From the NCBI GenBank assembly GCA_003132325.1, contig PKXK01000075.1, positions 23,763-87,762 on the forward strand: 64,000 bases of DNA, in the 5' to 3' direction. Below are positions 21,193 to 46,543 of the stretch, one piece after another. This DNA is from Acidobacteriaceae bacterium (GTDB lineage Bacteria > Acidobacteriota > Terriglobia > Terriglobales > Acidobacteriaceae). Under the pieces are notes generated by a model. It was not told the origin of the DNA and did not search any database. It saw nothing but the letters and a program-made list of their open reading frames with translations. The stretch's first letter is position 1, and the number at the start of each line of letters is the position of its first letter. The position numbers and the translations under genes are program-made.

Positions 21193-21996
21193 ATGCACTT
21201 GGTCGTCTGCCTCAAGCAAATCCTCGATCCCGAGATTCCATCGAGCGATTTCAAATTAGACACGCAGGCACGCGGTCCAGCGGAAGGTATTGCTTCGTTC
21301 GTGCCCAGTATCTTCGACGAAAATGCCCTCGAAGTCGCTCTCCAGGTCCGTGAAGCCGCAGGAGCCGGAAAGATCACCGCCATCTCGATCGGGCCGGATT
21401 CCACGATTGACGTTGTGCGCAAAGCGCTTTCCATGCGGGCCGACGAGGCCATTCTCATTCGCCAGGGCGAATTCCCCGATCTTGACACCTATGGCACCGC
21501 GCGCATTCTCGCCTCCGCTATTCGCAAGCTGGAACCTGCCGACCTTATTCTTTGCGGCCGGGAGTCCGGCGACTGGTACGGAGGTCAAGTGGCCGCCTTC
21601 CTCGCGGTAGAATTCAATTATCCTTACACCGCGCTCGTGGCTGCCGTTTCCCAGCAGGGAATGGAATGGCACTTTCGCCGCCAGTCTGATGACGGCTGGG
21701 AAACCATTGCGTGCTCGGTTCCGGCAGTGGTGAGCGTGACCAACGACGATCATAATTTACCCCGCATACCCAAGGTCCGCGACAATATGATCGCCTTCCG
21801 CAAAACCATTCCGGCATGGACCGCGAAGGACCTCGGCCTCGAACCCCAGTCGACCCGCGGACCCAACGCTGAGCTTGAACTGGAAAAACTCTATATTCCC
21901 CAGGTATCCCGGCAATGCCGCATTATCGCAGGGGACAACGTGGATCAGAAGGCAGAGCAGTTGGCGCAACAACTCGCCGACCTGCATGCCATTTGA
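21193..21996 (+). CDS. etfB: Electron transfer flavoprotein beta subunit
   Basis: MHLVVCLKQILDPE.., ..LILCGRESGDWYGGQV.., ..VVSVTND.. form the typical EtfB pattern. Confidence 0.9.
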   Translation: MHLVVCLKQILDPEIPSSDFKLDTQARGPAEGIASFVPSIFDENALEVALQVREAAGAGKITAISIGPDSTIDVVRKALSMRADEAILIRQGEFPDLDTYGTARILASAIRKLEPADLILCGRESGDWYGGQVAAFLAVEFNYPYTALVAAVSQQGMEWHFRRQSDDGWETIACSVPAVVSVTNDDHNLPRIPKVRDNMIAFRKTIPAWTAKDLGLEPQSTRGPNAELELEKLYIPQVSRQCRIIAGDNVDQKAEQLAQQLADLHAI

Positions 21997-22014
21997 AAGA
22001 GATCTGGATAGCAC

Positions 22015-23016
22015 ATGCGTAGTGTGGTTGCTGTTCTTATCGCCAATCATAACGAGCTCGGGCGCACCGAAATCGAAGTGTTGAGCGTCGGCGTGCGCCT
22101 CGCGGAGGATCTGGGCGGCACGCTGACTGCCGTCCTTCTCGGCGAACCGCCCGCCAGCTTCGCGCCCAGCTGCTTCAGCTATGGAGTGAACCGGGTAGCA
22201 GTTGCCGAAGGTCCAGTGTTCTCTGCATACCAGCCGATAGCGTTCTCTGCCGCGATCAAGCAGGTCATTCGAACTATCGGGGGCGACGTTCTCCTCTTCC
22301 CCAGCACCACCTCCGGACTGGAATTGGCCCCTCTCTCTGGACACAAGCTAGGCGCCAGTGTAGTGATGGACGCCGTCGGGGTTGATGGCAAAGTAGACGG
22401 CGGCGGAATCCGCATCCACAAGCCAGTCTTTGGTGGAAAAGCCCAAAGTCTGCTCATCGCCCGCAAAGCGCCGGTTGTCGTTGCGCTCCGGATGCGCTCG
22501 ATCGCACCCGTCGCCAAGCAGGAGAACACCCCGGGAGAAATCATCAAAGTTCCCGTGACCGTTACTTCTCCCGCCGGAACTTGGCGCTTAGTTGATCGCA
22601 ACGTGGAGCAGTCCGAGGGCCTTCGTCTCGAGGACGCCCGCATTGTGGTCAGCGGCGGCCGCGGTCTCGGCGGCAAAGAAAACTTCGCTTGCCTGGAAGA
22701 ACTCAGCAGAGTACTCGGCGCCGCTCTCGGTGCATCCCGCGCCGCCGTGGATCTGGGATGGGTCCCTTCCACCTGGCAGATCGGTCAGACCGGCAAAAAG
22801 ATTGCGCCAGACCTGTACCTCGCGGTGGGCATCTCCGGAGCTAGCCAGCACATGGTTGGGATCGCCGGGGCCAAGCATATCGTCGCCATTAATAAAGATG
22901 ACAAAGCGCCGATCTTTCAGATGGCGGAATTAGGGGTCATCGAGGACTATCGCGAATTCATTCCCAAGTTGATTGAGGCGGTCAAGAAACGCAAGGCTTC
23001 CGCCACCACACTATGA
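22015..23016 (+). CDS. etfA: Electron transfer flavoprotein alpha subunit
   Basis: ..[60 protein letters not shown].. is the EtfA FAD-binding signature. Confidence 0.9.
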
Positions 23017-25019
23017 CGCCGACGCGCCAAGTCTATTTCAACATCACCCAGGTTTGGGTGATGTACCTGCTGTTCGCGATCACGCTGGCGGTGTTTTGCC
23101 ATGGCATCTACCGTCATTGGCGTCGCTGGCAAATCGGAAGGCCCGTACAGCGTCTCGATCAGCTTGGTACCCGTCTGAGGCTATTGCTAAAGCAGGCCCT
23201 CGGCCACGAGAAGCTCCTCAAGCGCTATTCCGGCGCGGGAGTTGCGCATCTTCTCATTTTCTGGGGCTTCGTTTTTCTCTTCATCGGCACCGTCGTGGTC
23301 TTTATTCACGAGGATCTCCACATCCACATCATGCAGGGCAGCTTCTATCTGTATTTCGAATCGCTGACCCTGAACACCTTTGGCGTGTTGTGCATCGCGG
23401 GAATCGTCGCCGCGCTGGCTCAGCGCTACGTCCGCAGGCCGAAACGGCTGAAGCCCGATAAGCCGGACGATGCCATTATTCTGCTTGCAATGCTGCTCAT
23501 CCTGGTGACCGGCTTCATGATCCAAGGTCTGCGGATTCAAATCACCCACGATCCGTGGGCGGCTTGGTCACCCTTCGGCAAGGCTGCCGGAATCCTCTTT
23601 GCCAGATTTCTCAGCTCTGCTCAAATGCTCGTCCTGCACCGCGCGATCTGGTGGTTCCACCTCGTCGTCGTCTTCTCCTTCATCGGCTGGATCCCCTACT
23701 CCAAGCTGTTCCACGTCTTCACCGCTCCAGCGAGCATCTTCACGCAAAACCTCACGCCCCGCGGCCAGCTTCCCTTGCTGAACCTGGAAAAAGAAGAGGA
23801 ACCGCTCGGAGTAAGCCGGCTGCAGAATTTCTTCTGGAAAGACCTGCTCGATCTCGACGCCTGCACCGAGTGCGGCCGCTGCGAGGTGAACTGTCCGGCC
23901 TTTCTAACCGAGAAACCGCTCTCCCCCAAATGGCTCATCCTGGACGCGCGCGAGTCTCTGCACGCTCACGCGTCCAATGGAGACGGAAACTCGACGGACC
24001 CGGAGGCGCCATCTCCGCTGGTTGGGCCAGTTATAAAGGAAGAGACTTTGTGGTCCTGCACAACCTGCGGCGCTTGCATGGAACAGTGCCCGGTCGCGAT
24101 TGAGCACGTGCCCAAGATCGTCGGTATGCGCCGCCATCTGGTGATGGAGCGCGCGGAGTTCCCCGGAGACCTGGAAAACATGGTGCGCAGCCTCGAAGCC
24201 CGGGGCCATCCTTATCCTGGAGCCAGCGCGTCGCGCACCGACTGGATGCAAGGGCTTCCCGTAAAGTCCCTGGCCGACCAGCCCAACGCCGAGTTTGAAG
24301 TTCTGTTCTGGGTCGGCTGCGCCGGGGCCCTTAACCAGAGGAGCCAGTCCGTTACCCGCGCTGTCGCGGAACTGCTGGCCCGTGCGGGGGTGAAGTTTGC
24401 CGTGCTCGGGCGCGAAGAGCGATGTACCGGAGACTCCGCGCGACGCATTGGGCACGAATTCCTCTTCCAGACCTTGGCGCAGCAGAACATCGCCACCCTC
24501 GACCGTTATAAGGTCAAGAAGATCGTTACCGCCTGCCCGCACTGCTTTAACACAATTAAGAACGAGTATCCGCAACTTGGCGGCAATTATGAGGTCGTGC
24601 ATCACAGCGAGTTCTTGGCCGAACTCGTCGCCCAAGGGCGCCTGAAACCGAGAGAAGCCCCGACCGGCAAAGTCACCTTCCATGATCCCTGTTACCTCGG
24701 CCGCTACAACCAGATCTACGATGCGCCACGGAATCTGCTGGACAGCCTTCCCGGAGTCGAGCGCTCGGAACCCGAATGGAACCGCCGCAACGCTCTCTGC
24801 TGCGGCGGAGGTGGCGGCTTCTCCTTCATGGAAGAAAAACGTGGCACGCGCATGAACCAAAACCGCTCCCGCCAGCTATTGGCGACTGGGGCCGACACCA
24901 TCGCCGTCGGCTGCCCCTTCTGCATGATCATGCTGGAAGACGGCGTGAAGACCGCGGCCCCGGACGAGGCCGTACCAGTGCGGGATATCGCCGAAATCTG
25001 GAAGGCGGCAACCGAATGA
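23013..25019 (+). CDS. Membrane-bound Fe-S oxidoreductase, HdrD/DsrK-like with NarI-like N-terminal membrane domain (EtfD-like ETF:quinone oxidoreductase)
   Basis: About 5 hydrophobic helices in the first ~250 aa. Two ferredoxin motifs (CTECGRCEVNCP, CTTCGACMEQCP) and two CCG-type Cys-rich regions (..WVGCAG.., ..ALCCGGGGG..). ATGA-type overlap with etfA. Confidence 0.85.
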   Translation: MTPTRQVYFNITQVWVMYLLFAITLAVFCHGIYRHWRRWQIGRPVQRLDQLGTRLRLLLKQALGHEKLLKRYSGAGVAHLLIFWGFVFLFIGTVVVFIHEDLHIHIMQGSFYLYFESLTLNTFGVLCIAGIVAALAQRYVRRPKRLKPDKPDDAIILLAMLLILVTGFMIQGLRIQITHDPWAAWSPFGKAAGILFARFLSSAQMLVLHRAIWWFHLVVVFSFIGWIPYSKLFHVFTAPASIFTQNLTPRGQLPLLNLEKEEEPLGVSRLQNFFWKDLLDLDACTECGRCEVNCPAFLTEKPLSPKWLILDARESLHAHASNGDGNSTDPEAPSPLVGPVIKEETLWSCTTCGACMEQCPVAIEHVPKIVGMRRHLVMERAEFPGDLENMVRSLEARGHPYPGASASRTDWMQGLPVKSLADQPNAEFEVLFWVGCAGALNQRSQSVTRAVAELLARAGVKFAVLGREERCTGDSARRIGHEFLFQTLAQQNIATLDRYKVKKIVTACPHCFNTIKNEYPQLGGNYEVVHHSEFLAELVAQGRLKPREAPTGKVTFHDPCYLGRYNQIYDAPRNLLDSLPGVERSEPEWNRRNALCCGGGGGFSFMEEKRGTRMNQNRSRQLLATGADTIAVGCPFCMIMLEDGVKTAAPDEAVPVRDIAEIWKAATE

Positions 25020-25069: not shown

Positions 25070-26236
25070 ATGATCTCAACTGGTCAAACCATCCGGCAAA
25101 CGCCGCCGCTTGAGGTCCTGAACGGCTATCTCCACGACTACGGAGAGAGCGTGCGCCGTTTCTTTCGCGAACAGCAGCGCTCGGCGATGATCTCGCCACT
25201 CTTCAATCTGCCGGGACGGCTCATCCTGGGAAGCTACTGCTATTACGAAAACCTGAGACCACTTCTCCTCGAGTTGCTGCAACACACCACGCCGGAAGCG
25301 ATCGGCCGCAATATGCGCAAGCTCGGTTCGCGCGCCAATTCCATCCATCTGAACTCGCTGATGCTCGGCTACTTCAACGGCCGCGAGCAGCTTCGGTTGC
25401 TGGGAAAGCAGCCGCAGGACGACCTCGACGAACTCGCCTTTATCCTCGACTTCTGGGCCCGTGCTGCAAAGTCCTATCGCAGCGATGGCCACCACCTTCC
25501 CGACGACGCGGATTTCACGATGCCTGTTCTTTCGAAGCAAGATGTGGAAGCCCTCACTGCACAGCTGCGTGGAAGCTGGCCCGAAGAGATCAAGAACAAG
25601 ATCCGCCGCATGATGGCCACCCTCGAGCTCTACACCTTTATCCTCAACGGAGAGGCGCGCATCGGAGTTTTCCATCACGGACCTTACGCCCTCGCTAACG
25701 GGGACGTGCTGGTGGTCAAGGAACTGATTGGCCTGCGAGAGAACTTCTTCCCGTGGGCACATACCGACGCGCGTCCCGGCTGTGATGCCGTTGCCCGGGT
25801 GATGCGCCTTCGCGGGGTGCAAGCGAAGATCGTGCTGATGGGCAGCATGACCACGGTTCCTTCGTCCTACGAGGGAAACATCGTCGCGCAAGCAATTTTG
25901 CGGGTGGACGGCGGCGAAATCCGCTCCGTGGTGCCCGAAGAAATGGACGCGATCACCCAGGCAGCGGCCGAAGCTCAGCTCGAACTCTATCGCCGCATGA
26001 TTGACTGGGACAACCGCTACCGCGTGGAGTATGGGGCTGAACTATACGCCTGCATCCTGAATACTTTCGCGCAAAAGTTGCCTTTGCCCGATTTCGCGGA
26101 CAGCATCCGCCAGAATTTCCGCCGGTCAATTGACCGGCACCTCGACGACCTGTTCACCGGTCGCGAAACCCCGGCGGTGTTGAGTCACATTGCCAAAACC
26201 GATGGGCCGATTTATTCACCCATCGTGGTGAAATAA
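25070..26236 (+). CDS. Conserved hypothetical, unknown family A, copy 1
   Basis: 388-aa ORF in the operon frame with normal composition. Clear paralog of 26241-27452 and 57846-59036 (shared LFNLPGR, RRMMATLELYxFILxGExRxGxFxHGPY, FxPW, TxGPxxxP). I recognise no known domain. Confidence 0.7.
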   Translation: MISTGQTIRQTPPLEVLNGYLHDYGESVRRFFREQQRSAMISPLFNLPGRLILGSYCYYENLRPLLLELLQHTTPEAIGRNMRKLGSRANSIHLNSLMLGYFNGREQLRLLGKQPQDDLDELAFILDFWARAAKSYRSDGHHLPDDADFTMPVLSKQDVEALTAQLRGSWPEEIKNKIRRMMATLELYTFILNGEARIGVFHHGPYALANGDVLVVKELIGLRENFFPWAHTDARPGCDAVARVMRLRGVQAKIVLMGSMTTVPSSYEGNIVAQAILRVDGGEIRSVVPEEMDAITQAAAEAQLELYRRMIDWDNRYRVEYGAELYACILNTFAQKLPLPDFADSIRQNFRRSIDRHLDDLFTGRETPAVLSHIAKTDGPIYSPIVVK

Positions 26237-26240
26237 CTTA

Positions 26241-27452
26241 ATGAGCGCCGTGCACAACCCGATGTCGGTCGAAGAGATCAACCGCTGCATCCGGCTTTTC
26301 GGAGATGCCCAGAAGTCCTTCATGCACGCTGAAAAGCGTGCCGGGTTGCGCTCCGTGCTCTTCGACATCCCTCGCCGGTCCTCGATCGGCTGGCACTGCA
26401 TTTATGAAAAGGGCGCCGCGTTCCTCCGCGAGTTGTCGAATTACGCTTCCCCGGAAGAGCTGGGGCGGCGCATGCAGCGCCTGTGCTCGCGTCCTTACTA
26501 CCTGACACTCTCGATCATGATGTGCAGTTACCTGGGAGCGCGGCAGCAAATTATGCTTGACCACGGCCTCTTGCCTGACAGTGGATTCTCGGAGGAGAAA
26601 ATCGAAGAATTGGGTTTCATCATTGACTGGTGGAGCCGTGTTTGTCGCGCTTATCGTAGCGATGGACTGCTTCTCCCAGAACAAGCGAATAACACCCAGG
26701 AAATCCTCCCAGCCCCAACTGCGAGCGCAATCGATGGGCAGTTACTGCCGATGGAAACGGAAACCACCCACCGGCTTCGCCGCATGATGGCCACTCTCGA
26801 GCTCTATTGCTTCATCCTGCACGGCGAGCAGCGAGATGGTATCTTCGGCCACGGTCCGTACCCCGCCTGCGATGGTTCTCAGCTCGTCATCCTGGAATTT
26901 ACTGATCTCCAGAATGATTTTCTTCCGTGGGCGGAAACCAAAGTTAGGAATCCATATGCCAACCTCGCCGTCGCCCTGCGGATCAAAGGCGCGGCTGCCG
27001 AGTTCCGGCTCTTCGGCAGCATGCTGCTGAACCCGCCGGACCTCGCGGAGTCCTTGCAAGCGGGGCGCCTCTTCACGCGCGCTGCCGACGACCAGATTCT
27101 GCCCATTCCTTTCTCCGAAATGCCGTTTATCCAGCGCTGTGCCGCCGATGCGCAAAACGAACTTTATCTGAAAGCTGGGGAATGGTCGCCCCGCTTTCAG
27201 GCAGAATACGGCGTCCACTTGTTCGCCAATCACCTGCGCTCATTTTTTCATCTGACAGAACTCGGCAGCAGTTATGACGAGCGGATTCGCCAGGAGTTTC
27301 AATCCGCGGCGGTCCCGCTGATCGAGACTTTACTTTTGCAAAAGGAACCGCCTTCCATGTGGAGGTTCATGGCCACCACGGAAGGCGACTTTTTCTGGCC
27401 TATAGCGATCCACCAGGAGGTGCCGGCACACAATGTCCACTCGCAAGGTTAA
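26241..27452 (+). CDS. Conserved hypothetical, unknown family A, copy 2 (tandem paralog)
   Basis: 403 aa. RRMMATLELYCFILHGEQRDGIFGHGPY.., ..DFLPW.., ..TTEGDFFWPIAI. It starts 5 nt after copy 1 ends. Confidence 0.7.
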   Translation: MSAVHNPMSVEEINRCIRLFGDAQKSFMHAEKRAGLRSVLFDIPRRSSIGWHCIYEKGAAFLRELSNYASPEELGRRMQRLCSRPYYLTLSIMMCSYLGARQQIMLDHGLLPDSGFSEEKIEELGFIIDWWSRVCRAYRSDGLLLPEQANNTQEILPAPTASAIDGQLLPMETETTHRLRRMMATLELYCFILHGEQRDGIFGHGPYPACDGSQLVILEFTDLQNDFLPWAETKVRNPYANLAVALRIKGAAAEFRLFGSMLLNPPDLAESLQAGRLFTRAADDQILPIPFSEMPFIQRCAADAQNELYLKAGEWSPRFQAEYGVHLFANHLRSFFHLTELGSSYDERIRQEFQSAAVPLIETLLLQKEPPSMWRFMATTEGDFFWPIAIHQEVPAHNVHSQG

Positions 27453-29583
27453 ACCCGCCGCCCACGCGGCCACAACAAACGGTAAGGAAAAGGGCGAGTA
27501 CTTCTGCGGCATCGACATCGGTGGCACGTTCACCGATTGCGTGGTGCGCGACCAGGCGGGACGCCTGACTATCGCCAAAGCGCTCTCTACGCCGGAAGAG
27601 TCTTCCAAAGGCTTTTTCGCGGCGCTCGATGCCGCCGCCGCCAAACTCGGCCTGACTCTGCACGACCTGCTGTCGAACACGCAGCTTCTGCTGCACGGGA
27701 CCACTCTCGGCACCAACGCACTGCTGGAACGCAAGGGCGCCAAGACCGGACTCATCACCACTCGCGGTCACGCCGACGCCATCATCATGATGCGTTCGGT
27801 TGGCCGCTCCGCCGGACTCCCGCTTGACAAACTCCACCACGTCTCGCGTCATCAGAAGCCGGTTCCTCTCGTCCCTCGCAGCCTGATCCGCGAAGTCAGC
27901 GAGCGCATCGACTTCAGCGGGGAAGTTCTCCTGCCGCTGAACGAAGACGAAGCTCGCACCGCCATCCGCGAGTTGCTCGATCAGGGCGTACAAGCAATCG
28001 GCATCTGTTTTCTCTGGGGATTTGCCAATCCTGCCCACGAGATCCGTGTGCGCGAAATGATCGAAGAAATGGCGCCTGACGTGTACGTTACCTGCGGGCA
28101 TGAACTGATCTCCAAACCCGGCGAATATGAACGCGCCGCCGCCGTCGCCATCAACTGCTTCATTGGCCCCATGATGTCGCGCTACGTCATTCGCATCGAG
28201 GAACAAGCCCGTGCCCTCGGATATCGCCGGCCGCTTGTCATCATGCAATCTTCCGGAGGCGTGGCCGGCGCGGCGGAAGTTGCCCGTACGCCGGTCTTCA
28301 CTATCGGCTCCGGGCCCGCCGGGGGCCTCACTGCCAGCGGTTTTCTCGCCTCGCTGCTCAAGCAAAACAATGTTATCGCCTCCGACGTCGGCGGTACCAG
28401 CTTCGACGTTGGATTGGTGAGCGACGGCGTTCCCCTCTCCGGGACGGAGACAACCGTAAATCAATACACATTTTCCGCCCCCCACCTCGATCTGGTCTCG
28501 ATCGGCAGCGGCGGCGGCTCCATCATCTGGGTGGATGAGAAAACCGGGGGCCTCAAAGTCGGGCCCGAATCCGCCGGAGCCAATCCCGGCCCCGCTTGCT
28601 ACGGCCACGGCGGCACGCGCCCTGCGGTCACTGACGCCGACCTGATTCTCGGCTACTACAATCCCGATTACTTCCTCGGAGGGAAGCTGCAACTCGACAA
28701 GGCCGCCGCCACCTCCGCCATGGACAGAGTCGGTCGCCTGCTTGGCATGACCGCCGTGGAGACCGCTGCCGGAGCCGTCCAGATCGTTGAGTTCCAAATG
28801 GCAGAACTCATGCGCCAGATGACCGTCGAACGCGGCTTTGATCCCCGCGATTTCGTCGTCTACGGGTACGGAGGCGCAGCCGGCGCGCACGTCGCCGAGT
28901 ACACCCGCGAATTGGGCTGCCGTCGGGTCGTAGTCCCGCTCGGCGCCACCGCCTCCACCTGGTCGGCGCTGGGAGTCCAGGCGGCCGATCTTCTGCACGT
29001 TTACGAAAAATCGCGGCTGTTCATGGCACCGTTCCCCAGCAAGGAGTTCAACCAGATTTTCGAAGAGCTCGAACGGCCAGCCCGTCTGCAACTCCACAAA
29101 GATGGGCTGAAAGACAGCGATATTGCCATCGAACGCGCCGTGGAAATGAAATTCAAACTCCAGATCCACACCGTCGAGGTTCCGCTGCGCTGCGGCAAGC
29201 TCAGCGACCGGCACGTCAAGGAACTTGAGACTGCGTTCATCGAGAAGTACGAACGCACTCACGGGCGCGGCTCGGCCTTCACCGCCGCCGGAATTGAAAT
29301 CGGCCTTTTCCGCGTGCGGGCACGCGGCCGCATTCGCCGGCCATCGCTTCAGAAAAGGACAGCCGTCAAATCGGCCGGCGCCATCGACCGCCGCGAAGTT
29401 TACTGGCGCCGTTTTAAGGCATTCCGCACAACGCCCATCTACGATGGGGCGCGGCTGAAAACCAACGCGGTCGTGAAGGGCCCAGCCATTGTTCAGCTGC
29501 CCGAAACCACCATCGTCGTTCCACCGCGTGATGAAGGACATTTTGATGGTTACGGAAATTTTCTTTTGACCTTGTCCGACTGA
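27433..29583 (+). CDS. Hydantoinase/oxoprolinase A family ATPase (acetone-carboxylase beta-subunit-like)
   Basis: GIDIGGTFTDCV (Hydant_A_N), ..DVGGTSFDV.., ..IGSGGGSI..; 716 aa. It overlaps the previous gene by 20 nt. Confidence 0.9.
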   Translation: MSTRKVKPAAHAATTNGKEKGEYFCGIDIGGTFTDCVVRDQAGRLTIAKALSTPEESSKGFFAALDAAAAKLGLTLHDLLSNTQLLLHGTTLGTNALLERKGAKTGLITTRGHADAIIMMRSVGRSAGLPLDKLHHVSRHQKPVPLVPRSLIREVSERIDFSGEVLLPLNEDEARTAIRELLDQGVQAIGICFLWGFANPAHEIRVREMIEEMAPDVYVTCGHELISKPGEYERAAAVAINCFIGPMMSRYVIRIEEQARALGYRRPLVIMQSSGGVAGAAEVARTPVFTIGSGPAGGLTASGFLASLLKQNNVIASDVGGTSFDVGLVSDGVPLSGTETTVNQYTFSAPHLDLVSIGSGGGSIIWVDEKTGGLKVGPESAGANPGPACYGHGGTRPAVTDADLILGYYNPDYFLGGKLQLDKAAATSAMDRVGRLLGMTAVETAAGAVQIVEFQMAELMRQMTVERGFDPRDFVVYGYGGAAGAHVAEYTRELGCRRVVVPLGATASTWSALGVQAADLLHVYEKSRLFMAPFPSKEFNQIFEELERPARLQLHKDGLKDSDIAIERAVEMKFKLQIHTVEVPLRCGKLSDRHVKELETAFIEKYERTHGRGSAFTAAGIEIGLFRVRARGRIRRPSLQKRTAVKSAGAIDRREVYWRRFKAFRTTPIYDGARLKTNAVVKGPAIVQLPETTIVVPPRDEGHFDGYGNFLLTLSD

Positions 29584-29595: not shown

Positions 29596-31887
29596 ATGGT
29601 TTCACCGTCTGTGCAATGGGATGGCCGCAACTATCCGTACGTGGCCCCGAAAAAACTCTCGATTGATCGCAGCCTCAAGCTGCACACTGCCGCCGAGGCA
29701 AGCATCGATCCTGTCACCTACGAAGTCGTGCGCCACGCCATGTGGAACATGAATGTCGAACACGGCAACACCATCATGAAGATTTCGGGCTCGCCCATCT
29801 GCGCCTACGGGCACGACTTCAATCCTTGCCTGCTCGATGAGATCGGAGACTTCGTTTTTTTCGGTCCCTTCCTGCAATACCTTGGCTCTGCCACTACCTC
29901 TGCCATCAAGTGGACGCTGGAAAATCGTTCCACTAATCCCGGCATCGAGGACGGGGACATCTTTCTGACGAACGATCCGTGGATTGGAGCCACGCATCAA
30001 TCCGATGTCACCCTGATCGCTCCGCTGTTCTGGGAAGGCAAACTCTTTTGCTGGGTGGGCAACACGCTCCACCAGTGGGATCTCGGCGGGACTTCCCCCG
30101 GGGGCTTCAATCCCCAGGCGCCGGATATCTTTTCGGAAGCCGGCTGCATTCCGCCGATAAAGATAGTCGAAAAAGGTCGCCTGCGCCGCGATATCGAAGA
30201 GGAATACATCCGCCGCTCCCGTGTGCCGCAGTTGGTGGCCCTCGATCTGCGCGCCGAAATCGCTGGCTGCAATGTGGCCCGCGAGCGCATGCTCAGTCTC
30301 ATCAAGCGCTACGGCCCGGAAACCATCAAAGGCGTCATCCGCAAACTCCAGAACGATTCCGAGAAGGCTTTCCTGGCCCGCCTGAACACCATTCCCGACG
30401 GCACCTGGCGCGAAGTCGGCTGGATCGAGATGGCAAACACGCAGGATCGCCATATTTACCGCAACGCTCTCACGCTCACCAAACGAGGCAACAAGCTGAT
30501 CTTCTCCAACGAAGGCACCGACCCGCAGTCCGGCACGCTGAACTGCACCATGGTCGCGTGGAAAGGCGCCATCGCCTCCATGATCTGCGCCCAGATGCTG
30601 TTCGACCAGATGTTCGTGGTCGAAGGCGCCTATCGTCACTGTGAATTCAACGCGACCCCGGGGACGCTGACCTGCGCCACCTATCCCGCCGCGGTAAGTG
30701 CCGCACCCGCTCTGACGCTGCTGCAGACGATTGCGCTGGCCGGACTGGTTATCTCGAAAATGCTGGCCTGCTCTTCCGATCCCGAACTCCGCAAGGAGGT
30801 GCAAAGTTGCATGGGAGCGGCCATGTATCCGATTGCCGCATTCAACGGAATCGATCAGCGCAAATCTCCATTCGTTTCCTTCCTGCTCGATCCGGTGGGC
30901 GCCGCACTGGCCGGCCTCTCGTGGCGCGACGGCGTGGACACCGGCGGTTGGCCCTGGGACCTGCAAAGCACCATGCCCAACGTCGAAGAGCATGAATGGT
31001 TCTATCCCATCTTTTATCTATGGCGGCGTGAACTGAGAGATTCCGGCGGTGCCGGCAAGTTCCGGGGAGGCAACTCCGCCGAACTCGCCTTCATCCCGCA
31101 CAAAACCGATCGGCTCACCTTCATTACCGCAACCGGCCACGCCGCGGTTCCTCCGCCGGGATTGTTCGGCGGATCGCCTCCCTCGACGACCCGCTATACC
31201 ATCAAGCGCGACGCCCGCGTCCGCTCGCACATGAGCGAGACGGGCAAGATGCCCGACACGCTGGAAGATCTGCCCGGCAAGACTGAGTATCTCGCGCCGA
31301 AAAGCTTTAACATTCCCGCCCTTCCCGACGACGTGTTTGTGCTTGCCTGGGCAGGCGCCGGGGGCTACGGAGATCCGCTCGAGCGCGATCCGGAAGCCGT
31401 GCACCGCGACCTGGTGAATGGCAACATTACCGCGGACTGGGCCAAGCAGGCGTATGGTGTGGTATTCGATCAGAGTGGCAAGCTTGATAAAGCCGCCACC
31501 GATCATATCCGCGATCAACTTCGTGCCGGGCGACTGGCCAACGCGCCGAAGAAGGAGCATTTCAAAGCCAACGTGGACGGCGCCCGCCAGGTGGCAGAAG
31601 GGTTGTTGCTCGTCGGCTTCGGCAGCGAGGCCTTCCTCGCCTGCGCCAAGTGTCACACCCGCATCAGCCGTGCTCGCGACAATTACAAGCTGCACTGCGT
31701 AACCGAATCACACCCGGTTACCGCAGCGAATCCGCACATCTTGGATCCTAAAACTTACATCGACGATGCTGTCGTTTTCCAGACTTACGTGTGTCCCGGA
31801 TGTGGCCTGCTCCTGCAAACTGAGATCCTGCGACCGGGCGGCGAACCGCTCTGGGATCTGCAACTCGCCGAGGTGAAGCGCAAGTGA
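29596..31887 (+). CDS. Hydantoinase B/oxoprolinase family subunit (acetone-carboxylase alpha-like) with fused C-terminal gamma-subunit-like Zn ribbon
   Basis: DPVTYEVVRHAMWNMNVEHGNTI.. and ..GAGGYGDPLERDPEAVHRDL.. form the HyuB core. The last ~110 aa carry CAKC...CPGC (two CxxC pairs). Confidence 0.9.
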   Translation: MVSPSVQWDGRNYPYVAPKKLSIDRSLKLHTAAEASIDPVTYEVVRHAMWNMNVEHGNTIMKISGSPICAYGHDFNPCLLDEIGDFVFFGPFLQYLGSATTSAIKWTLENRSTNPGIEDGDIFLTNDPWIGATHQSDVTLIAPLFWEGKLFCWVGNTLHQWDLGGTSPGGFNPQAPDIFSEAGCIPPIKIVEKGRLRRDIEEEYIRRSRVPQLVALDLRAEIAGCNVARERMLSLIKRYGPETIKGVIRKLQNDSEKAFLARLNTIPDGTWREVGWIEMANTQDRHIYRNALTLTKRGNKLIFSNEGTDPQSGTLNCTMVAWKGAIASMICAQMLFDQMFVVEGAYRHCEFNATPGTLTCATYPAAVSAAPALTLLQTIALAGLVISKMLACSSDPELRKEVQSCMGAAMYPIAAFNGIDQRKSPFVSFLLDPVGAALAGLSWRDGVDTGGWPWDLQSTMPNVEEHEWFYPIFYLWRRELRDSGGAGKFRGGNSAELAFIPHKTDRLTFITATGHAAVPPPGLFGGSPPSTTRYTIKRDARVRSHMSETGKMPDTLEDLPGKTEYLAPKSFNIPALPDDVFVLAWAGAGGYGDPLERDPEAVHRDLVNGNITADWAKQAYGVVFDQSGKLDKAATDHIRDQLRAGRLANAPKKEHFKANVDGARQVAEGLLLVGFGSEAFLACAKCHTRISRARDNYKLHCVTESHPVTAANPHILDPKTYIDDAVVFQTYVCPGCGLLLQTEILRPGGEPLWDLQLAEVKRK

Positions 31888-33458
31888 ACATCGGCCTCAT
31901 CGCATCGCGTAACGCACACCGCTATTGCAATAAGATCGCGCTGGTTGACGCCAACGCCGGCCGCCAGGTGACTTGGCGAGAATTCAACGATCGTGTCAAT
32001 CGCTTGTCGCATGCTCTCCTCTCGCGACAGCTGACCAAGGGCGACCGCGTTGCCATCTACTCCAGAAATTCGCTTGAGTACCTCGAACTCTTCATGGCCT
32101 GTGCCAAAACTGGAATCGTGGTTGAACCGATGAACTGGCGGTTTACACCCGAAGAAGTCGCGGCCACGCTGCGTGACGGCACGCCTCGCGTCATCCTGGT
32201 CAGCAATGAATACGCGGACTGCTATCGATCGATCAGCTCCGGTCTGCCGTTCATCGAACTGGTGGTCGGAATCGGCAATGGGCATGGTTTCGACACGGAT
32301 TACGATGCGTGGATCGCTACCTGTGCGAATTCCGAGCCCGAAACCGTCCACACCGTGGGCGATGACGATCTCTACTTCATCTGCTACACCGGTGGCACCA
32401 CGGGCGTGGCGAAGGGCGCCATGATCACCCATAAGAACGCCTACACCACCATGGTGAACATGACGGTTGCCGAGCAGATTACCTCGAACGACGTTTACAT
32501 CATCATGGGCCAGATGTTCCACATCGCAGTGCTCCTGCCGCACGGTTACATGTTCCATGGCGCCAAGGTCATCATTCTCAACTTTGATCCGCGCCGCGTG
32601 TTGCAGGTCATCCAGGAGCATCGAGTCACGACCCTTCTGGCCATCTCCACGATGATGAACTACATCATGGACGTGCCCGGCTTCGGCAACTTCGACACCA
32701 GCACACTCCGTCTCATCTCCTACGGCGGCGGCCCCTTCGCGTCCACCACCCTCGAACGCGCCATGCGAATGTTTCCGGGCATAGGCTTCCTGCAATATAT
32801 GGGACAAACCGAAGTCAGCATCATGTCGGCATGGCTGGGCCCCGAAGATCACGTCCGCGGGTTGGAAGACAATCCCGGCCTGCTCCACTCCTGCGGGCGC
32901 GAGGCCCTTCTTTGTGACGTTCGGGTCGTGGACGAACACGATCAGGACGTCCCGCGCGACGGGAAAACTCCCGGCGAGATGATTGTGCGCGGCGGAAACG
33001 TTATGCGCGGCTACTGGAACATGCCCGAACTCACCGCGGAGACCCTGCGCGGAGGCTGGTGCCACACCGGGGACATCGCCACCTGGGACGCCGACGGCTA
33101 CATGTACGTGGTCGATCGCAAGAAAGACATGATCGTCTCCGGAGGCGAAAACATCTTCAGCGCCCGCGTTGAGGAGATCATCTACCGGCACCCGGCCGTA
33201 AAGGAATGTGCTGTGATCGGAGTCCCTCATCCCGTGTACGGAGAAACTGTGAAGGCCTGCGTCGTGCTGCGGGAAGGCTACACCGCCACCGCCGAAGAAA
33301 TCATCGAGAGTTGCCGCCCTCACCTCGCCAGCTATCAGAAGCCGACCTCGGTAGAATTCCTTGATGCCCTCCCCAAATCCCCAACCGGCAAGCTCCTCAA
33401 ACGGGTCCTGCGGGAAAAACATTGGGGCGACCACTCCCGCCGAGTAGGAGGCGCCTGA
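31884..33458 (+). CDS. AMP-forming acyl-CoA synthetase/ligase
   Basis: GTG start overlapping the hyuB stop (GTGA). ..ICYTGGTTGVAKGAM.., ..GWCHTGDIA.., ..DRKKDMIVSGGENI.., ..PKSPTGKLLKR... Confidence 0.9.
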   Translation: MNIGLIASRNAHRYCNKIALVDANAGRQVTWREFNDRVNRLSHALLSRQLTKGDRVAIYSRNSLEYLELFMACAKTGIVVEPMNWRFTPEEVAATLRDGTPRVILVSNEYADCYRSISSGLPFIELVVGIGNGHGFDTDYDAWIATCANSEPETVHTVGDDDLYFICYTGGTTGVAKGAMITHKNAYTTMVNMTVAEQITSNDVYIIMGQMFHIAVLLPHGYMFHGAKVIILNFDPRRVLQVIQEHRVTTLLAISTMMNYIMDVPGFGNFDTSTLRLISYGGGPFASTTLERAMRMFPGIGFLQYMGQTEVSIMSAWLGPEDHVRGLEDNPGLLHSCGREALLCDVRVVDEHDQDVPRDGKTPGEMIVRGGNVMRGYWNMPELTAETLRGGWCHTGDIATWDADGYMYVVDRKKDMIVSGGENIFSARVEEIIYRHPAVKECAVIGVPHPVYGETVKACVVLREGYTATAEEIIESCRPHLASYQKPTSVEFLDALPKSPTGKLLKRVLREKHWGDHSRRVGGA

Positions 33459-33797
33459 ATGCCAAAAATTGGACAAGGCCTGCTCACTTCCGGCCGCGAA
33501 TGCCAAGGCACGCTGCGCGTCGTGGACACTATTCCGGATGTCCTCCGACTCATGCGGGAGGACCTCTCGGACGTAATCCTCTTCATGCAGTCGGCATCGG
33601 CCACCGCCGCTACTCCGCTTTTTGCGAAGATCAAGGGCATTGTCTGCACTGCCGGTGGGGCCACGTCTCACCTGGCGATCGTCGCACGTGAATTTGATCT
33701 ACCTTGCGTGATGGCCAGCGCGATGGAACACACCAACGGTCTTGACGGCCGCAGAGTCAGACTGAACCAGAAAGGCGAGATTTTTCTCGACAACTGA
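33459..33797 (+). CDS. Stand-alone PEP-utilising-enzyme mobile (phosphohistidine swivel) domain protein
   Basis: 112 aa. ..IKGIVCTAGGATSHLAIVAREFDLPCVM.. is the PEP_mobile signature with the catalytic His. The ATG directly abuts the ligase TGA. Confidence 0.85.
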   Translation: MPKIGQGLLTSGRECQGTLRVVDTIPDVLRLMREDLSDVILFMQSASATAATPLFAKIKGIVCTAGGATSHLAIVAREFDLPCVMASAMEHTNGLDGRRVRLNQKGEIFLDN

Positions 33798-34705
33798 TGG
33801 ATCGCCCCCCCACTCAAACCCGCGTCTACATCAATCTCGGCTTCCCCGAACTGGCGGCCAAGTATGCCAAGCTGCCCTGCGACGGCGTTGGCTTAATGCG
33901 TGCCGAGTTTTTTGCGCTCTCCATGGGAATCCATCCCAAGAAGCTGATCGCCGACGGGGGCGACATTGCGTTCATCGATTCCTTCGCCAATGGCTTGGCC
34001 ACAGTCGCCCAGGAATTCGCACCCCGACCGGTATTCTTTCGAACGCTGGACCTAAAATCCAATGAATACGCCGGCCTCGAAGGCGGCGGCCAATACGAGC
34101 AGCGCGAAGAAAATCCCATGCTCGGCTTTCGCGGCGCCTCCCGCTACCTTGCCGATCCCGAAAGCTTTCGCCTCGAACTCCGGGCGGTGAAGCGCGTGCG
34201 CGACGGAGGCCTGCGAAACGTTCGCCTGCTGCTCCCCTTCGTCCGTTTTCCACGAGAACTGAAAAGATGCCGCGAAATCGTTGAACAGGAGGGCCTGTTC
34301 GCCGATCCGGAGTTCGAACTCTGGATGGTCGCCGAGGTCCCCTCCAACGTCTTGCTGATTGACGAATTTCTGCCGCTGGTGTCCGGCATCTCGATCGGTT
34401 CCAACGACCTCACGCAGCTTATGCTCGGAATTGACCGCGACAGCGCTCGCCTGGCTAAGGAATTCGACGAGCGCGATCCCGCGGTCCAGAACGCAATCGC
34501 AATCATCGCGAAGGCCTGCCGGGCCGCGGGGAGGCCGGTCTCCATTTGCGGAAATGCGCCATCGCGCTATCCGGAACTCGTTCCCAGGTTGATTTCCGCG
34601 GGCCTGACCAGCCTGTCGGTTTCACCGGAAGCGTTTGAAGCCACGCTCAAGGCTGTGGTCGAGGCCGAAGCCATGTTGGGATTTGCTGCAAGACCGCTCC
34701 AATAG
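33797..34705 (+). CDS. Stand-alone PEP-utilising-enzyme C-terminal TIM-barrel (PEP/pyruvate-binding) domain protein
   Basis: ..DGVGLMRAEFF.., ..NPMLGFRGASRY.., ..ISIGSNDLTQLMLG.., ..VSICGNAPS.. are the PEP-utilizers_C signatures. The start overlaps the previous stop (TGATG). Confidence 0.85.
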   Translation: MDRPPTQTRVYINLGFPELAAKYAKLPCDGVGLMRAEFFALSMGIHPKKLIADGGDIAFIDSFANGLATVAQEFAPRPVFFRTLDLKSNEYAGLEGGGQYEQREENPMLGFRGASRYLADPESFRLELRAVKRVRDGGLRNVRLLLPFVRFPRELKRCREIVEQEGLFADPEFELWMVAEVPSNVLLIDEFLPLVSGISIGSNDLTQLMLGIDRDSARLAKEFDERDPAVQNAIAIIAKACRAAGRPVSICGNAPSRYPELVPRLISAGLTSLSVSPEAFEATLKAVVEAEAMLGFAARPLQ

Positions 34706-34759
34706 AACGGCCGTCAGGTTACTGCCGGCCGAATGACGAAATGCTGGGTGCTAACTCCT

Positions 34760-35686
34760 ATGTCTGAACCTCAACCGCAAGACGACTTCATCCATCCCAC
34801 CGGCGAAGAGCCCACCTGGCGCGAAGCCTGCTATTTTGATTTCTTCGATCCCGCCAGCCGCCTCTCCAGCTTCGGCTACATTGGCGTGCACCCCAACCAG
34901 CAAGTTGGCGACGTCATTTTCGCCCTCTGGCGCGACGACGTTCTTCTCGGCAGCTTCACCCGCTGGGACTTCAACATCCCGCGCGATATCGGCGCAGAGC
35001 GCCTCGGCTTCGGGCATCTCTTCTTCCGGCCGGTCGAGCCGTTCAAAACCTGGGAAATTTATTTCGATGATGGCCGCGTCCGCGTGGACACCACCTTCCA
35101 CGCTATCCATCCCGCCTACTTTTGGGGCCAGTCTCACGGTGCGCTCGAGAAAACCAACAGCCATCACTACGAACAGCAGGGACGCTACACCGGCGAAGTG
35201 CGGGTTGGAGCGGAACGCTACAAAATCGATGGCGTCGGCGTCCGCGACCACGCCTGGGGATGGGGCGCCCGCGCGGGCATCCGCCGCTGGATCTGGGCCT
35301 CCGCGCAGTTTTCCAGCGGCTTTGCTTTCAATACCTTTCTGATTACCCTGGCGGACGGCCGCGAAATTCTATACGGATATATCTGGCGGGGAAAACAGAA
35401 CGAATTGATCCGCCGTTCGACGCTGAAGGCTGAATACGCGCCCAAAGGCCAGGCTCCCGCCGCGCTCACGCTCGCCATGGAAGGCCGCAATGGGGATCGG
35501 GTCAGCGCCACCGCTAGAGTCCTCAATGCCTTCAACACCTCGTTCCAGGAGCGCAACAAGACTGGCTATCACTACTTCGGCGCGGCCAAATTCCAATGCG
35601 AAGGCCAAGTTGGCTACGGACAGATCAACGTGCACTGGCAAAAACAGGAAGACCGTCCGGAAAACTGGACGGTCTCGCAGGAGTAA
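34760..35686 (+). CDS. Conserved hypothetical, unknown family B, copy 1 (beta-rich, RDHAWGWG motif)
   Basis: Paralog of 56766-57701 and 60005-60877 (shared ..EPxWREAxYFxFYD.., ..GxGxRDHxWGxx..W..). The MSEPQPQ start was chosen by alignment to the paralogs; ATG at 34733 is possible. Confidence 0.7.
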   Translation: MSEPQPQDDFIHPTGEEPTWREACYFDFFDPASRLSSFGYIGVHPNQQVGDVIFALWRDDVLLGSFTRWDFNIPRDIGAERLGFGHLFFRPVEPFKTWEIYFDDGRVRVDTTFHAIHPAYFWGQSHGALEKTNSHHYEQQGRYTGEVRVGAERYKIDGVGVRDHAWGWGARAGIRRWIWASAQFSSGFAFNTFLITLADGREILYGYIWRGKQNELIRRSTLKAEYAPKGQAPAALTLAMEGRNGDRVSATARVLNAFNTSFQERNKTGYHYFGAAKFQCEGQVGYGQINVHWQKQEDRPENWTVSQE

Positions 35687-36871: not shown

Positions 36872-36897
36872 GAAATCCCCTGAATCGACGGCATGGA

Positions 36898-39005: not shown

Positions 39006-39025
39006 TGTCCTCCTCGACCGGCACC

Positions 39026-39784: not shown

Positions 39785-39791
39785 ATTGGCC

Positions 39792-40568: not shown

Positions 40569-40586
40569 GTGAACTCCTTGCCATTG

Positions 40587-41717: not shown

Positions 41718-41799
41718 AAACGCCCCGATTCGCTTGCGTCTCTATGTGAAACCGTGCCGTTCCAGGCGAAACGCGGAACTGCTATTTGCCTGGACGCGC

Positions 41800-42612: not shown

Positions 42613-42614
42613 GC

Positions 42615-43514: not shown

Positions 43515-43526
43515 TTCCTCTCCCGT

Positions 43527-44072: not shown

Positions 44073-44092
44073 GGCAATCTTCCTCCCGACCT

Positions 44093-44134: not shown

Positions 44135-44151
44135 TACAACTCTAGCCGGAA

Positions 44152-44910: not shown

Positions 44911-44925
44911 GGTGGCTCCGATCCG

Positions 44926-46532: not shown

Positions 46533-46543
46533 TCTTTTACCTG

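Follow-up and report, generated by a model that had tools for sequence, protein, structure and literature searches.

The window, a stretch of 64,000 nucleotides from an Acidobacteriaceae bacterium, carries three open reading frames of a protein family that we call family A, all on the plus strand: famA1 (25070-26236, 388 aa), an A1-type member; famA2 (26241-27452, 403 aa), an A2-type paralog directly 3' of it; and famA3 (57846-59036, 396 aa), for which an in-frame ATG upstream at 57795 would give a protein of 413 aa. Both famA2 and famA3 can be aligned with famA1 over the whole length, the identities being 34% and 32%, respectively, and the pairwise BLAST E-values (A1-A2, 8e-74; A1-A3, 9e-63; A2-A3, 2e-50) place the similarity far above chance, marking the three, at the level of sequence, as the true paralogs that the original prediction had taken them to be. 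The motifs that it had described are also present: LF(N/D)xP(G/R)R on the N-terminal side, RRMMATLELY.FIL.GE.R.G.F.HGPY in the centre (in copy 3, RRRPWATLTAYNFLLHGEMRDGIFNHGPY), (F/Y)(F/L)PW, and T.G..(Y/F).P at the C-terminus, although copy 3 opens the last of these with N (NTTGPIFSP) rather than with K or T.

The family A genes are genuine; searches at E ≤ 1e-3 gave 177 homologs, with identities of up to 92% and none of them named. Clustering at 50% identity puts family A in 314 clusters out of 1.84 billion representatives, a small family, and orthologs of famA1, 48-92% identical, occur in Acidobacteriota, Gammaproteobacteria and Gemmatimonadota. Nearly all loci of the close subfamily keep the A1>A2 gene pair; A1 and A2 are separate lineages, and their retention as neighbours across phyla suggests that famA1 and famA2 form a hetero-oligomer. 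The residues conserved throughout the family are mainly five arginines (R37, R105, R137, R180 and R197), together with E195 and G204-P-Y206, and the arginine set would fit an anion or phosphate site.

famA1 and famA2 belong to a tightly packed operon on the plus strand, the first three genes of which (21193-25019) encode ETF-beta, ETF-alpha and a membrane Fe-S/CCG oxidoreductase, a trio kept upstream of famA1 in Acidobacteriota loci. As originally described, the tandem pair lies directly upstream of HyuA, the end of famA2 overlapping by 20 nt the start of the gene for this HyuA-type subunit (27433-29583, 716 aa; Hydant_A_N, Hydantoinase_A and Hydant_A_C). The HyuB-type subunit that follows (29596-31887, 763 aa; PF02538) has a C-terminal fused domain (PF08882, residues 678-755) that resembles the small Zn (gamma) subunit of acetone and acetophenone carboxylases; HyuB matched 5l9w_A with an E-value of 1e-53, and its residues 682-755 matched 5l9w_C with 3e-5. 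HyuA resembles caprolactamase alpha and ApcC, and both subunits score under all NCBIfam equivalog cut-offs, caprolactamase being equally close. An AMP-forming acyl-CoA ligase (31884-33458, 524 aa; PF00501 and PF13193), which scored 469 bits against the long-chain fatty-acid-CoA ligase model NF004837 (cut-off 476), precedes two small proteins: a stand-alone PEP-utilising swivel protein, or phospho-His carrier (33459-33797, 112 aa; PF00391, E 1e-13), with the catalytic His motif GGATSHLAIVARE, and a stand-alone PEP/pyruvate-binding TIM-barrel protein (33797-34705, 302 aa; PF02896, E 1.6e-64). The TIM protein resembles the C-terminal domain of PEP synthase (9dae, E 3.5e-85; NF005057, E 1.8e-102) and, as read from its sequence, keeps the SICGNAPS Cys motif. 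Next to it lies the first of three genes for proteins resembling 25-phosphosteroid lyase (25-PSL), with DUF7065 and DUF7064 domains (34733-35686, plus strand).

The second 25-PSL-like gene (DUF7064/7065; 56766-57701, minus strand) is divergently oriented from famA3, the 3' partner of which (59118-59930, plus strand; PF00753) encodes a metallo-beta-lactamase-fold (MBL) protein. Beside the third (DUF7065/7064; 60005-60877, minus strand) lies a gene for a rifampin-phosphotransferase (RPH)-like protein (61001-63682, minus strand, 893 aa; PPDK_N and PEP-utilizers) with the layout ATP-grasp, central domain, swivel; it matches the RPH structures 5hv1/5fbs over its full length (E 2e-93), its NCBIfam scores lying under the equivalog cut-offs. 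The island around family A also encodes DUF35/thiolases, ECH, ETF and acyl-CoA dehydrogenase (ACAD), a genuine ACAD being encoded at 14410-15564, and is reminiscent of steroid or isoprenoid catabolism.

Relationship of family A to known proteins

Family A had been described as having no recognisable domain and as belonging to no known family, and this description stands. Sequence-family searches used single sequences as well as profiles built from 3, 26 and 43 sequences; they brought no Pfam match above noise (none at E ≤ 1) and no NCBIfam match, and the best E-values of two family A profiles against the sequences of the PDB were 0.086 and 2.7. The AlphaFold (AF2) model of famA1 is of high confidence (pLDDT 92, pTM 0.91); with this model, Foldseek returned a best E-value of 2.0 and TM-scores of at most 0.14 against the PDB, and nothing at E ≤ 0.001 against the PDB and BFVD together. 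By homology, no nucleotide-, metal- or phosphate-binding signature was recognisable, nor was any likeness to ATP-grasp, P-loop or Rossmann proteins in sequence or fold. Family A is previously undescribed and, as judged from the predicted model, its fold is apparently new.

Several specific relationships were considered, and most were rejected. An ACAD fold had seemed conceivable from the alpha/beta/alpha order, the length of about 390 aa and the adjoining ETF genes; ACAD chains gave E-values of 3-4, TM-scores of 0.12-0.13 and rmsd values of 18-20 Å, and family A has no ACAD Pfam domains. Neither is it a stand-alone RPH central domain or PpsA substrate domain, since hhalign against the RPH-like protein gave a probability of 0.2; the Foldseek library included RPH, PPDK, PEP synthase and EI structures, none of which was matched at E ≤ 0.001. 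Family A itself shows no homology to ATP-grasp PPDK_N, RPH central, TIM or swivel domains. For a likeness to Apc/Acx subunits, the comparison covered the chains of 5l9w, 5m45 and 5svb, which gave no match in sequence or fold; the solved complex does not include Apc-epsilon. Small-molecule kinases such as APH (PF01636), the Pfam family to which we take 25-HSK to belong, likewise gave no Pfam match at E ≤ 1 and no PDB fold. Identity with 25-HSK is rejected, that enzyme being placed in the 'phosphotransferase family' (PMC8449060) and family A matching no kinase family, as is identity with HpeH, HpeI or CreHI, which are PPDK_N/swivel proteins (PMC9618137).

Genomic partners of family A

The original prediction regarded famA1 and famA2 as accessory, specificity or chaperone-like subunits of HyuAB, comparable to Apc-epsilon. 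An additional subunit is a known requirement of acetophenone carboxylase, and the window operon, with HyuA and HyuB, a gamma-like Zn domain fused to HyuB and then a CoA ligase, has a likeness to the apc-bal arrangement. The grouping of famA1 and famA2 in one tightly packed operon with HyuA/HyuB and the swivel and TIM genes is indeed present, with famA2 running into the HyuA start. The condition that the original prediction had named for its own refutation, orthologs that never adjoin such genes, does not hold, since orthologs elsewhere do adjoin both Hyu and PEP-utilising genes. Our neighbourhood counts cover 39 loci (L numbers) of at least 9 kb, from a genome scan that reached close relatives only; HyuA/HyuB lie within 10 kb of family A in 27 of them and are confined to the close subfamily. 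However, no HyuAB was found within 10 kb at L005, L007, L032, L037, L040, L045, L047, L050, L051, L056 or L057, nor any at L058 or L059, and in the distant contexts (Rhodococcus plasmids, Methylibium PM1, L007, L037, L040 and L050-53) it is absent throughout, so that family A has no obligate genomic association with HyuA/HyuB. In Gammaproteobacteria and Gemmatimonadota a PSL-like gene stands between the family A pair and HyuAB, and the family A pair abuts the swivel-TIM pair; family A is found fused to swivel domains and never to Hyu; no NCBIfam model matches it, although the library includes Apc subunit models; and it is not found in the solved Apc/Acx structures. The Hyu proposal is borne out in part, HyuAB co-occurring with one subfamily, and we consider a HyuAB subunit an improbable role for family A. 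A literature search on Hyu plus PEP-utilising clusters in Acidobacteria gave nothing relevant.

The near-constant partner of family A across subfamilies is instead the phospho-His swivel domain. A swivel ORF lies at most 9.1 kb from family A in 37 of the 39 loci, often overlapping it or within 40 bp, and in the short contig of L039 (P0168) the swivel gene is directly upstream; the 1.5-kb contig of P0187 shows no neighbours that are informative. Of the 49 distinct swivel ORFs, about 38 carry GGATSHLAIVARE under a strict pattern, and most of the remainder also show the His. In at least three representative clusters the two are a single protein, with PF00391 N-terminal to family A (P0267, 777 aa; P0205, 575 aa; P0179, 516 aa), and the same order is seen in Rhodococcus opacus B4 (WP_043827458, 793 aa) and R. 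pyridinivorans (WP_268655838, 577 aa). The link to the swivel is looser at famA3-type loci: no swivel gene lies within 10 kb at L047, and the closest one at L045 is 9.1 kb away. An MBL gene adjoins famA3-type genes in L042-L047 and L049, and the micro-synteny <PSL-like / famA3> MBL> is conserved in L044-L049.

The phosphoryl donor module beside family A appears, from the gene content, to be interchangeable. One variant is a PEP-synthase-type TIM (the window, L013-L035 and L040) and the other a truncated PPDK consisting of ATP-grasp and swivel (Rhodococcus, L007, L036 and L050-53; NF004531, 768 bits). The window holds both hallmarks of PEP-utilising enzymes, a swivel with a phosphorylatable His and a PF02896 TIM, and its operon encodes no ATP-grasp. 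In the TIM operons, family A is the sole remaining candidate acceptor module. The same gene content accommodates a different reading, in which family A is a new nucleotide-binding donor module and TIM, swivel and family A make up a split PPDK/PEP-synthase-like enzyme that would supply the AMP-forming HyuAB and CoA ligase with ATP remade from AMP (PEP + AMP + Pi/PPi -> pyruvate + ATP). Acetone carboxylases and acyl-CoA ligases do release AMP, and the conserved arginines could bind nucleotide phosphates. Yet a bona fide ATP-grasp + swivel protein stands beside family A in Rhodococcus, L007, L036 and L050-53, where a second nucleotide module would be redundant; family A lacks the ATP-grasp, P-loop or Rossmann likeness noted above; and recurrent PSL-like lyases and phosphatases would be left unexplained. 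We judge ATP regeneration to be very unlikely.

The second recurrent partner, unrecognised in the original prediction, is by sequence and predicted fold a 25-PSL homolog. The AF2 model of copy 1 (pLDDT 92.3) matched the 25-PSL structures 9g4c/9fzn in Foldseek with E-values of 4e-17 to 1e-15 and TM-scores of 0.68-0.69, 9g4c being the best (TM 0.69), and a profile search with hmmsearch found the 25-PSL sequence at E 4.9e-9. Copies 1 and 2 are 34% identical, copy 3 was aligned together with them, and the motifs D..H and G.RD..WG are common to DUF7065/64 proteins and 25-PSL. The DUF7065/7064 proteins are, by both fold and sequence, homologs of 25-PSL with an AttH/CrtC-like double beta-barrel; fold matches also include kievitone hydratase (7a0t) and pericyclases, and because the fold is shared with hydratases and pericyclases it does not by itself assign their activity. 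Such homologs adjoin family A in the window, with its three copies, and in most close loci, as well as in cassettes of Rhodococcus sp. 008 (famA-swivel-Acc200-PSL-PPDK) and Methylibium PM1 (PSL-famA-153aa-swivel); a Y_phosphatase3 phosphatase closes some family A clusters outside the lineage of the window. Literature searches on DUF7064/7065 and on the PM1 family A genes gave nothing relevant.

A putative split swivel-His kinase

The reading that we prefer, and to which we give an even chance, is that family A serves as the catalytic module that binds the acceptor in a split swivel-His kinase; in the window this kinase would depend on PEP, act on alcohols and feed a phospho-lyase. The stand-alone TIM protein would accept the phosphoryl group from PEP, the 112-aa swivel protein would carry it on its conserved His, and family A would bind the acceptor substrate and receive the group from swivel-His~P, the putative famA1/famA2 hetero-oligomer passing it to the hydroxyl of a hydrophobic substrate, probably the tertiary alcohol of an isoprenoid- or steroid-like molecule. 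The adjacent 25-PSL homolog(s) would then eliminate phosphate, for a net PEP-driven dehydration to an alkene, and the product might be processed further by the HyuAB-gamma enzyme, the CoA ligase, DUF35/thiolases, ECH, ACAD and ETF. famA3 may perform the same chemistry with its own two lyase homologs, its source of phosphate being either the Swiv/TIM pair or the neighbouring RPH-like protein. Direct phosphotransfer from swivel to family A is argued for by their covalent fusion, the swivel being active-site-competent, and the kinase reading as a whole by the 25-PSL homologs and phosphatases further along, which would require a substrate that carries phosphate. In phosphoryl-transfer potential, the product of the 25-hydroxysteroid kinase comes near ATP (PMC8449060), which would rationalize PEP as donor. 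What the analysis establishes is the identity of the domains, their fusions and synteny and the conserved carrier His; the direction of phosphotransfer, family A as the acceptor site, the hetero-oligomer, the type of substrate and the lyase step are predictions.

Some observations sit less easily with a split kinase. APH-type kinases also occur in some clusters (L037, L040 and pROB02) and the RPH-like protein brings its own central domain, so that another protein could be the kinase; the model does not account for the HyuAB of the same operon; and phosphoryl flow could run in reverse, with a phosphorylated metabolite as donor and pyruvate or AMP as acceptor. In another reading, family A might be no phosphotransferase at all and instead a lipid or substrate carrier, scaffold, regulator or hydratase/isomerase that presents hydrophobic substrates to a lyase, kinase or carboxylase, the kinase being the RPH-, APH- or PPDK-like protein. 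The presence of other kinases in several clusters, the lack of any PDB fold matching the family A model, and the conservation at famA3 loci of a PSL-like gene and MBL, instead of a swivel, all accord with such a role. Nevertheless, TIM and swivel have no other candidate acceptor domain in the window operon or in its relatives from Gammaproteobacteria, Gemmatimonadota and Actinomycetota, the fusion to a competent swivel speaks for direct phosphotransfer, and the invariant Arg/Glu/GPY core has the look of a catalytic or ligand-binding site more than of a purely structural one. A non-phosphotransferase role appears to us rather unlikely.

A fuller form of the split-kinase reading is put forward tentatively, as somewhat less than an even prospect. 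In it, famA1/famA2 would be the new-fold core of a PEP-dependent tertiary-alcohol kinase (PEP->TIM->swivel-His->family A->substrate) that, with the 25-PSL-like lyases, dehydrates the side chains of isoprenoids or steroids at the expense of PEP and independently of oxygen. This dehydratase would be common among the Acidobacteriota, Gammaproteobacteria and Gemmatimonadota of soil and peat that have not been cultured, and versions driven by ATP-grasp, on catabolic plasmids of Rhodococcus and Methylibium, would serve other alcohols or phenols.

Comparison with known systems and implications

Among PEP synthase, PPDK and PTS enzyme I, the swivel and TIM proteins of the window are clear homologs of the corresponding parts of PEP synthase, with the catalytic His and Cys kept; the difference from these enzymes is that the domains are here separate small proteins and that the ATP-grasp (or HPr-binding) module is missing, family A apparently taking its place. 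In swivel-His small-molecule kinases, PF00391 shuttles the phosphoryl group from a donor module to the hydroxyl of a hydrophobic substrate, and the phosphate is later removed (PMC9618137). Phenylphosphate synthase PpsAB(C), the 4-cresol kinase CreHI, the hydroxyphenylethanone kinases HpeHI/AcvAB and RPH are multi-component or multi-domain, like the family A system, the parts of which are split over four polypeptides. Their substrate site lies in PPDK_N-related or RPH-central domains, both unlike family A, and the donor is ATP-grasp rather than, as here, a stand-alone PEP-binding TIM. The Rhodococcus family A clusters follow the logic of Hpe (kinase/biotin carboxylase/phosphatase) or of Cre (kinase/P450/ADH/ALDH/phosphatase).

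Alcohol phosphorylation followed by phosphate elimination, the logic proposed for the window, is that of 25-HSK and 25-PSL in Sterolibacterium denitrificans, where 25-HSK is a monomeric, ATP-using enzyme of 43 kDa from the 'phosphotransferase family' (PMC8449060). No 25-HSK-type kinase was found among the scanned ORFs of the window; family A, swivel and TIM would stand in for it, with PEP as the donor. A further difference is that no Mo-hydroxylases occur near family A.

The combination of family A with a swivel domain, often with 25-PSL homologs, points, from gene content, to a new PEP- or ATP-driven phosphorylation of hydrophobic alcohols in soil bacteria, the products of which would then be dehydrated or dephosphorylated. 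The link to family A also offers a way into the function of two more orphan families, DUF7065/64 and the ~200-aa 'Acc200'. Strains that are in culture and open to genetics also have family A (Rhodococcus opacus B4, R. pyridinivorans P23, Rhodococcus sp. 008 and Methylibium petroleiphilum PM1), which makes the split-kinase hypothesis directly testable. If it is correct, family A would add a new acceptor module, apparently of new fold, to the phosphotransfer toolkit of PEP synthase, PPDK, PTS-EI and RPH, and would supply the missing kinase for the many 25-PSL homologs without a 25-HSK-type partner. The strategy of phosphorylating, eliminating or transforming, and dephosphorylating, so far known from Sterolibacterium, Corynebacterium (Cre) and Rhodococcus/Sphingobium (Hpe/Acv), would then extend to abundant uncultured soil Acidobacteriota, with PEP, not ATP, as its driving force there.

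Family A genes and predicted fold

The three open reading frames assigned to family A, an uncharacterised protein family, were confirmed at 25070-26236 (famA1, 388 aa), 26241-27452 (famA2, 403 aa) and 57846-59036 (famA3, 396 aa), all on the forward strand. Their predicted paralogy was borne out by full-length alignment (32–34% identity; pairwise BLAST E values of 8e-74, 9e-63 and 2e-50), and all the motifs quoted in the original prediction were found, the sole slip being the C-terminal motif of famA3, which starts with N. These are real, conserved genes, matching 177 database proteins at E ≤ 1e-3 with identities of up to 92%; none of these homologs contains a Pfam domain or is named beyond ‘hypothetical protein’. 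When 1.84 billion cluster representatives were searched exhaustively with a profile, only 314 relatives emerged, 91 of them at E ≤ 1e-30, and family A is a small, sharply bounded family. An alternative in-frame ATG at 57795 (+), 51 nt upstream of 57846, would extend famA3 to 413 aa, but we favour the shorter form because its closest homolog, P0123, has 384 aa. The famA2 ortholog in the metagenome-assembled genome (MAG) contig_3794 (L001/L012, 11054-12251) is broken into two ORFs of 261 and 140 aa, and HyuB, famA and TIM were each seen as multiple fragments at locus L034; these are likely to be frameshift errors of long-read assemblies rather than biology.

As predicted, no domain could be recognised: family A had no match in Pfam or NCBIfam, profiles of 3 and 43 sequences found no chain among PDB sequences (best E 0.086 and 2.7), and no account of the family turned up in Pfam, NCBIfam, PDB or the literature that could be searched. 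For famA1, AlphaFold2 with a 26-sequence alignment gave a confident model (mean pLDDT 92.0, pTM 0.91) comprising an N-terminal helical region (residues 14–192), a seven-strand β region (200–286) and C-terminal helices (289–376). The Foldseek comparison called for in the original prediction, against 350,542 PDB chains, returned none at E ≤ 0.001 (best E 2.0, TM ≤ 0.14), nor did BFVD at the same threshold. An acyl-CoA dehydrogenase fold, prompted by the α/β/α order and the length, was ruled out (TM about 0.12). Five arginines, one glutamate and a G-P-Y turn are conserved family-wide (numbering in the source alignment is offset by −3), a pattern that would fit an anionic or phosphoryl site.

Genomic setting in the window

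famA1 and famA2 belong to a single compact operon (intergenic spacing −20 to +50 nt), in the order ETF-β, ETF-α, membrane Fe-S/CCG oxidoreductase, famA1, famA2, HyuA, HyuB, AMP-forming CoA ligase, swivel, TIM, DUF7065/7064. The swivel, a PF00391 phospho-His carrier domain, is a stand-alone protein of 112 aa, and the PEP/pyruvate TIM domain, likewise stand-alone (302 aa), is closely related to the PEP synthase C-terminal domain (E 3.5e-85 and 1.8e-102). HyuB (29596-31887, +) carries a fused C-terminal PF08882 domain (residues 678–755) like 5l9w_C, the small Zn-binding subunit of acetone/acetophenone carboxylase, whereas HyuA is, if anything, nearer to caprolactamase α than to Apc subunits, so that the HyuAB reaction type is ambiguous; both fall below every NCBIfam equivalog cut-off. 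ETF-β/α and the membrane NarI-like/2×[4Fe-4S]/CCG protein (21193-25019, +) form an ETF:quinone-oxidoreductase-like module at the operon head, an arrangement kept in Acidobacteriota loci; the nearest ACAD is encoded on the other strand, about 5.6 kb before the operon begins.

Three DUF7065/DUF7064 paralogs (34733-35686, +; 56766-57701, −; 60005-60877, −) are homologs of 25-phosphosteroid lyase (25-PSL) by structure and sequence. The best fold match of an AlphaFold model of the first of them (pLDDT 92.3) is 25-PSL (9g4c/9fzn/9g2i; E 4e-17 to 2e-15, TM 0.68–0.69), followed by AttH, kievitone hydratase and fungal pericyclases, and the family profile also recovered 25-PSL on sequence (E 4.9e-9), with D..H and G.RD..WG motifs in common. 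Entries 9g4c/9fzn were released in 2026; a weak relation to the ‘Rv3169 family’ (NCBIfam, E 1e-16) is below cut-off. In Sterolibacterium, 25-hydroxysteroid kinase (25-HSK), a monomeric 43-kDa phosphotransferase-family enzyme, makes a tertiary phosphoester whose group-transfer potential is comparable to that of ATP, and 25-PSL removes the phosphate of this ester by elimination (PMC8449060; PMC11061730). Among the window ORFs scanned, there was no kinase of a family comparable to 25-HSK.

famA3 is flanked by two further DUF7065/64 genes, an MBL-fold gene and, adjoining it, an 893-aa full-length rifampin phosphotransferase (RPH) homolog (61001-63682, −) with ATP-grasp, central and swivel domains, whose substrate is probably not rifampin because its score is below the RPH equivalog cut-off. 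Outside these genes, the window is taken up by a CoA-dependent catabolic island (1-20535 and 35693-51823) reminiscent of steroid or isoprenoid degradation, with five CoA-transferase subunit genes, DUF35(ChsH2-like)/SCP-x thiolase pairs, two ACADs, an OYE-type dienoyl-CoA-reductase-like protein, a CrtI/amine-oxidase-like flavoprotein, SDRs, four luciferase-like monooxygenases, ECH, DUF2889, SnoaL-like and TetR regulator genes, and a TonB-dependent receptor (51899-55180).

Swivel linkage across loci and cultured hosts

Loci were mapped with probes from the window in 28 reference-genome loci, 12 metagenome loci and targeted look-ups. The reference-genome loci are all MAGs, from Acidobacteriaceae/Terriglobia/Blastocatellia, Gemmatimonadota, several Gammaproteobacteria and one Miltoncostaeaceae actinomycete. 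The close-subfamily core is (PSL-like)-famA1-famA2-(HyuA-HyuB)-(ligase)-Swiv-TIM-(PSL-like), PSL-like denoting the DUF7065/7064 proteins; the order is HyuA-HyuB-PSL-famA1-famA2-Swiv-TIM-PSL in Gammaproteobacteria and Gemmatimonadota, Swiv-TIM-famA1-famA2 in the actinomycete and, at one Hyu-free locus (L040), Swiv-TIM-PSL-PSL-famA. Of the 39 loci spanning 9 kb or more, many related to one another, a swivel ORF lies within 9.1 kb of family A in 37; the two others are a famA3-type locus and a truncated contig. HyuAB occurs in 27 of the 39, all within the close subfamily.

Two Rhodococcus plasmid proteins and three representative clusters (P0267, P0205, P0179) have an N-terminal PF00391 swivel fused to family A; fused and neighbouring swivels alike retain an intact phosphorylatable His motif. 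The original prediction suggested that family A could be an accessory, specificity or chaperone-like subunit of HyuAB, its neighbour in the close subfamily; the Hyu-free contexts and the swivel fusions weaken that reading. A second orphan family of about 200 aa, Acc200 (motif SYHTVW.EMHE.LL, winged-helix-like region), is fused at the family A C-terminus in P0203, P0217, P0267 and a 793-aa pROB02 protein, and encoded beside family A at L007 (3012-3620, −), L038 (2823-3446), L056 (18278-18886) and L059 (13499-14095). It occurs in ATP-grasp-driven subfamilies and is absent from the window.

Family A was found in five cultured backgrounds by tblastn against plasmids. On R. opacus B4 pROB02, truncated PPDK, Fd and FdR diverge from P450-ALDH-ADH-CoA ligase-APH-swivel~famA~Acc200-Y_phosphatase, an arrangement presumably analogous in logic to the CreHI/JEF/G/C/D cresol pathway. 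Rhodococcus sp. 008 has famA-swivel-Acc200-PSL-like-truncated PPDK, adjoining P450/ADH/ALDH and DUF35-thiolase genes. The R. pyridinivorans P23 pA cluster, swivel-famA-AMP ligase-Acc200-truncated PPDK (NF004531, 768 bits)-BCCP-BC-pyruvate-carboxylase-type CT-DUF35-thiolase-Y_phosphatase3, shares kinase/carboxylase/phosphatase logic with the Hpe pathway (PMC9618137). On M. petroleiphilum PM1 plasmid RPME01 (480093-483884), the cluster PSL-like-famA-153 aa-swivel is separated by a few kb from the MTBE/tert-butyl-alcohol pathway genes for 2-hydroxyisobutyryl-CoA mutase, ligase and MeaB, and this proximity hints at tertiary-alcohol substrates.

The donor protein of the Rhodococcus cassettes is the truncated PPDK, with ATP-grasp and swivel but no TIM domain (L056 18883-20622; L057 2242-3954, −; L059 15185-16768; NF004531/PRK05878 above cut-off). 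NF004531 may correspond to short mycobacterial ‘PpdK’ proteins; family A could be a missing partner of truncated PPDKs of this kind. The co-occurrence of family A with genuine ATP-grasp proteins weakens the alternative that it is itself a nucleotide-binding donor, with ATP regenerated from AMP.

A proposed role in phosphoryl transfer

Phosphoryl donors vary (PEP-TIM domain or ATP-grasp), as do consumers of the phosphorylated intermediate (PSL-like lyase, or a biotin carboxylase/P450 pathway closed by a phosphatase), and the constant part is family A plus swivel; in TIM operons, family A is the only candidate for the acceptor site. Because of this constancy, and because the conserved Arg/Glu/G-P-Y residues fit a phosphoryl site, we propose family A as the acceptor-binding part. 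That it works with swivel-His~P is the sole explanation covering all contexts, and we give it an even chance. Family A may instead be a non-catalytic carrier or scaffold, as further kinases in some clusters and the looser tie of famA3 loci to a swivel gene would allow.

Under the swivel-dependent reading, famA1/famA2, probably a hetero-oligomer because they are two ancient, always-paired lineages, would make up the catalytic, acceptor-binding portion of a split kinase that depends on PEP, with transfer running towards the acceptor, and PSL-like proteins would remove phosphate from its product by elimination. By analogy with apc-bal, the substrate of HyuAB-γ and the ligase is probably a ketone or acid that arises later as an intermediate. 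The specific reading as a PEP-driven alcohol dehydratase is more tentative. Domain identities, fusions, synteny and the conserved His are direct observations; the transfer direction, the class of substrate, the oligomeric state and the lyase activity are inferred. The family A system, centred on a protein for which no structural relative could be detected, brings together known themes, modular swivel-His phosphotransferases and phosphorylation-driven elimination.
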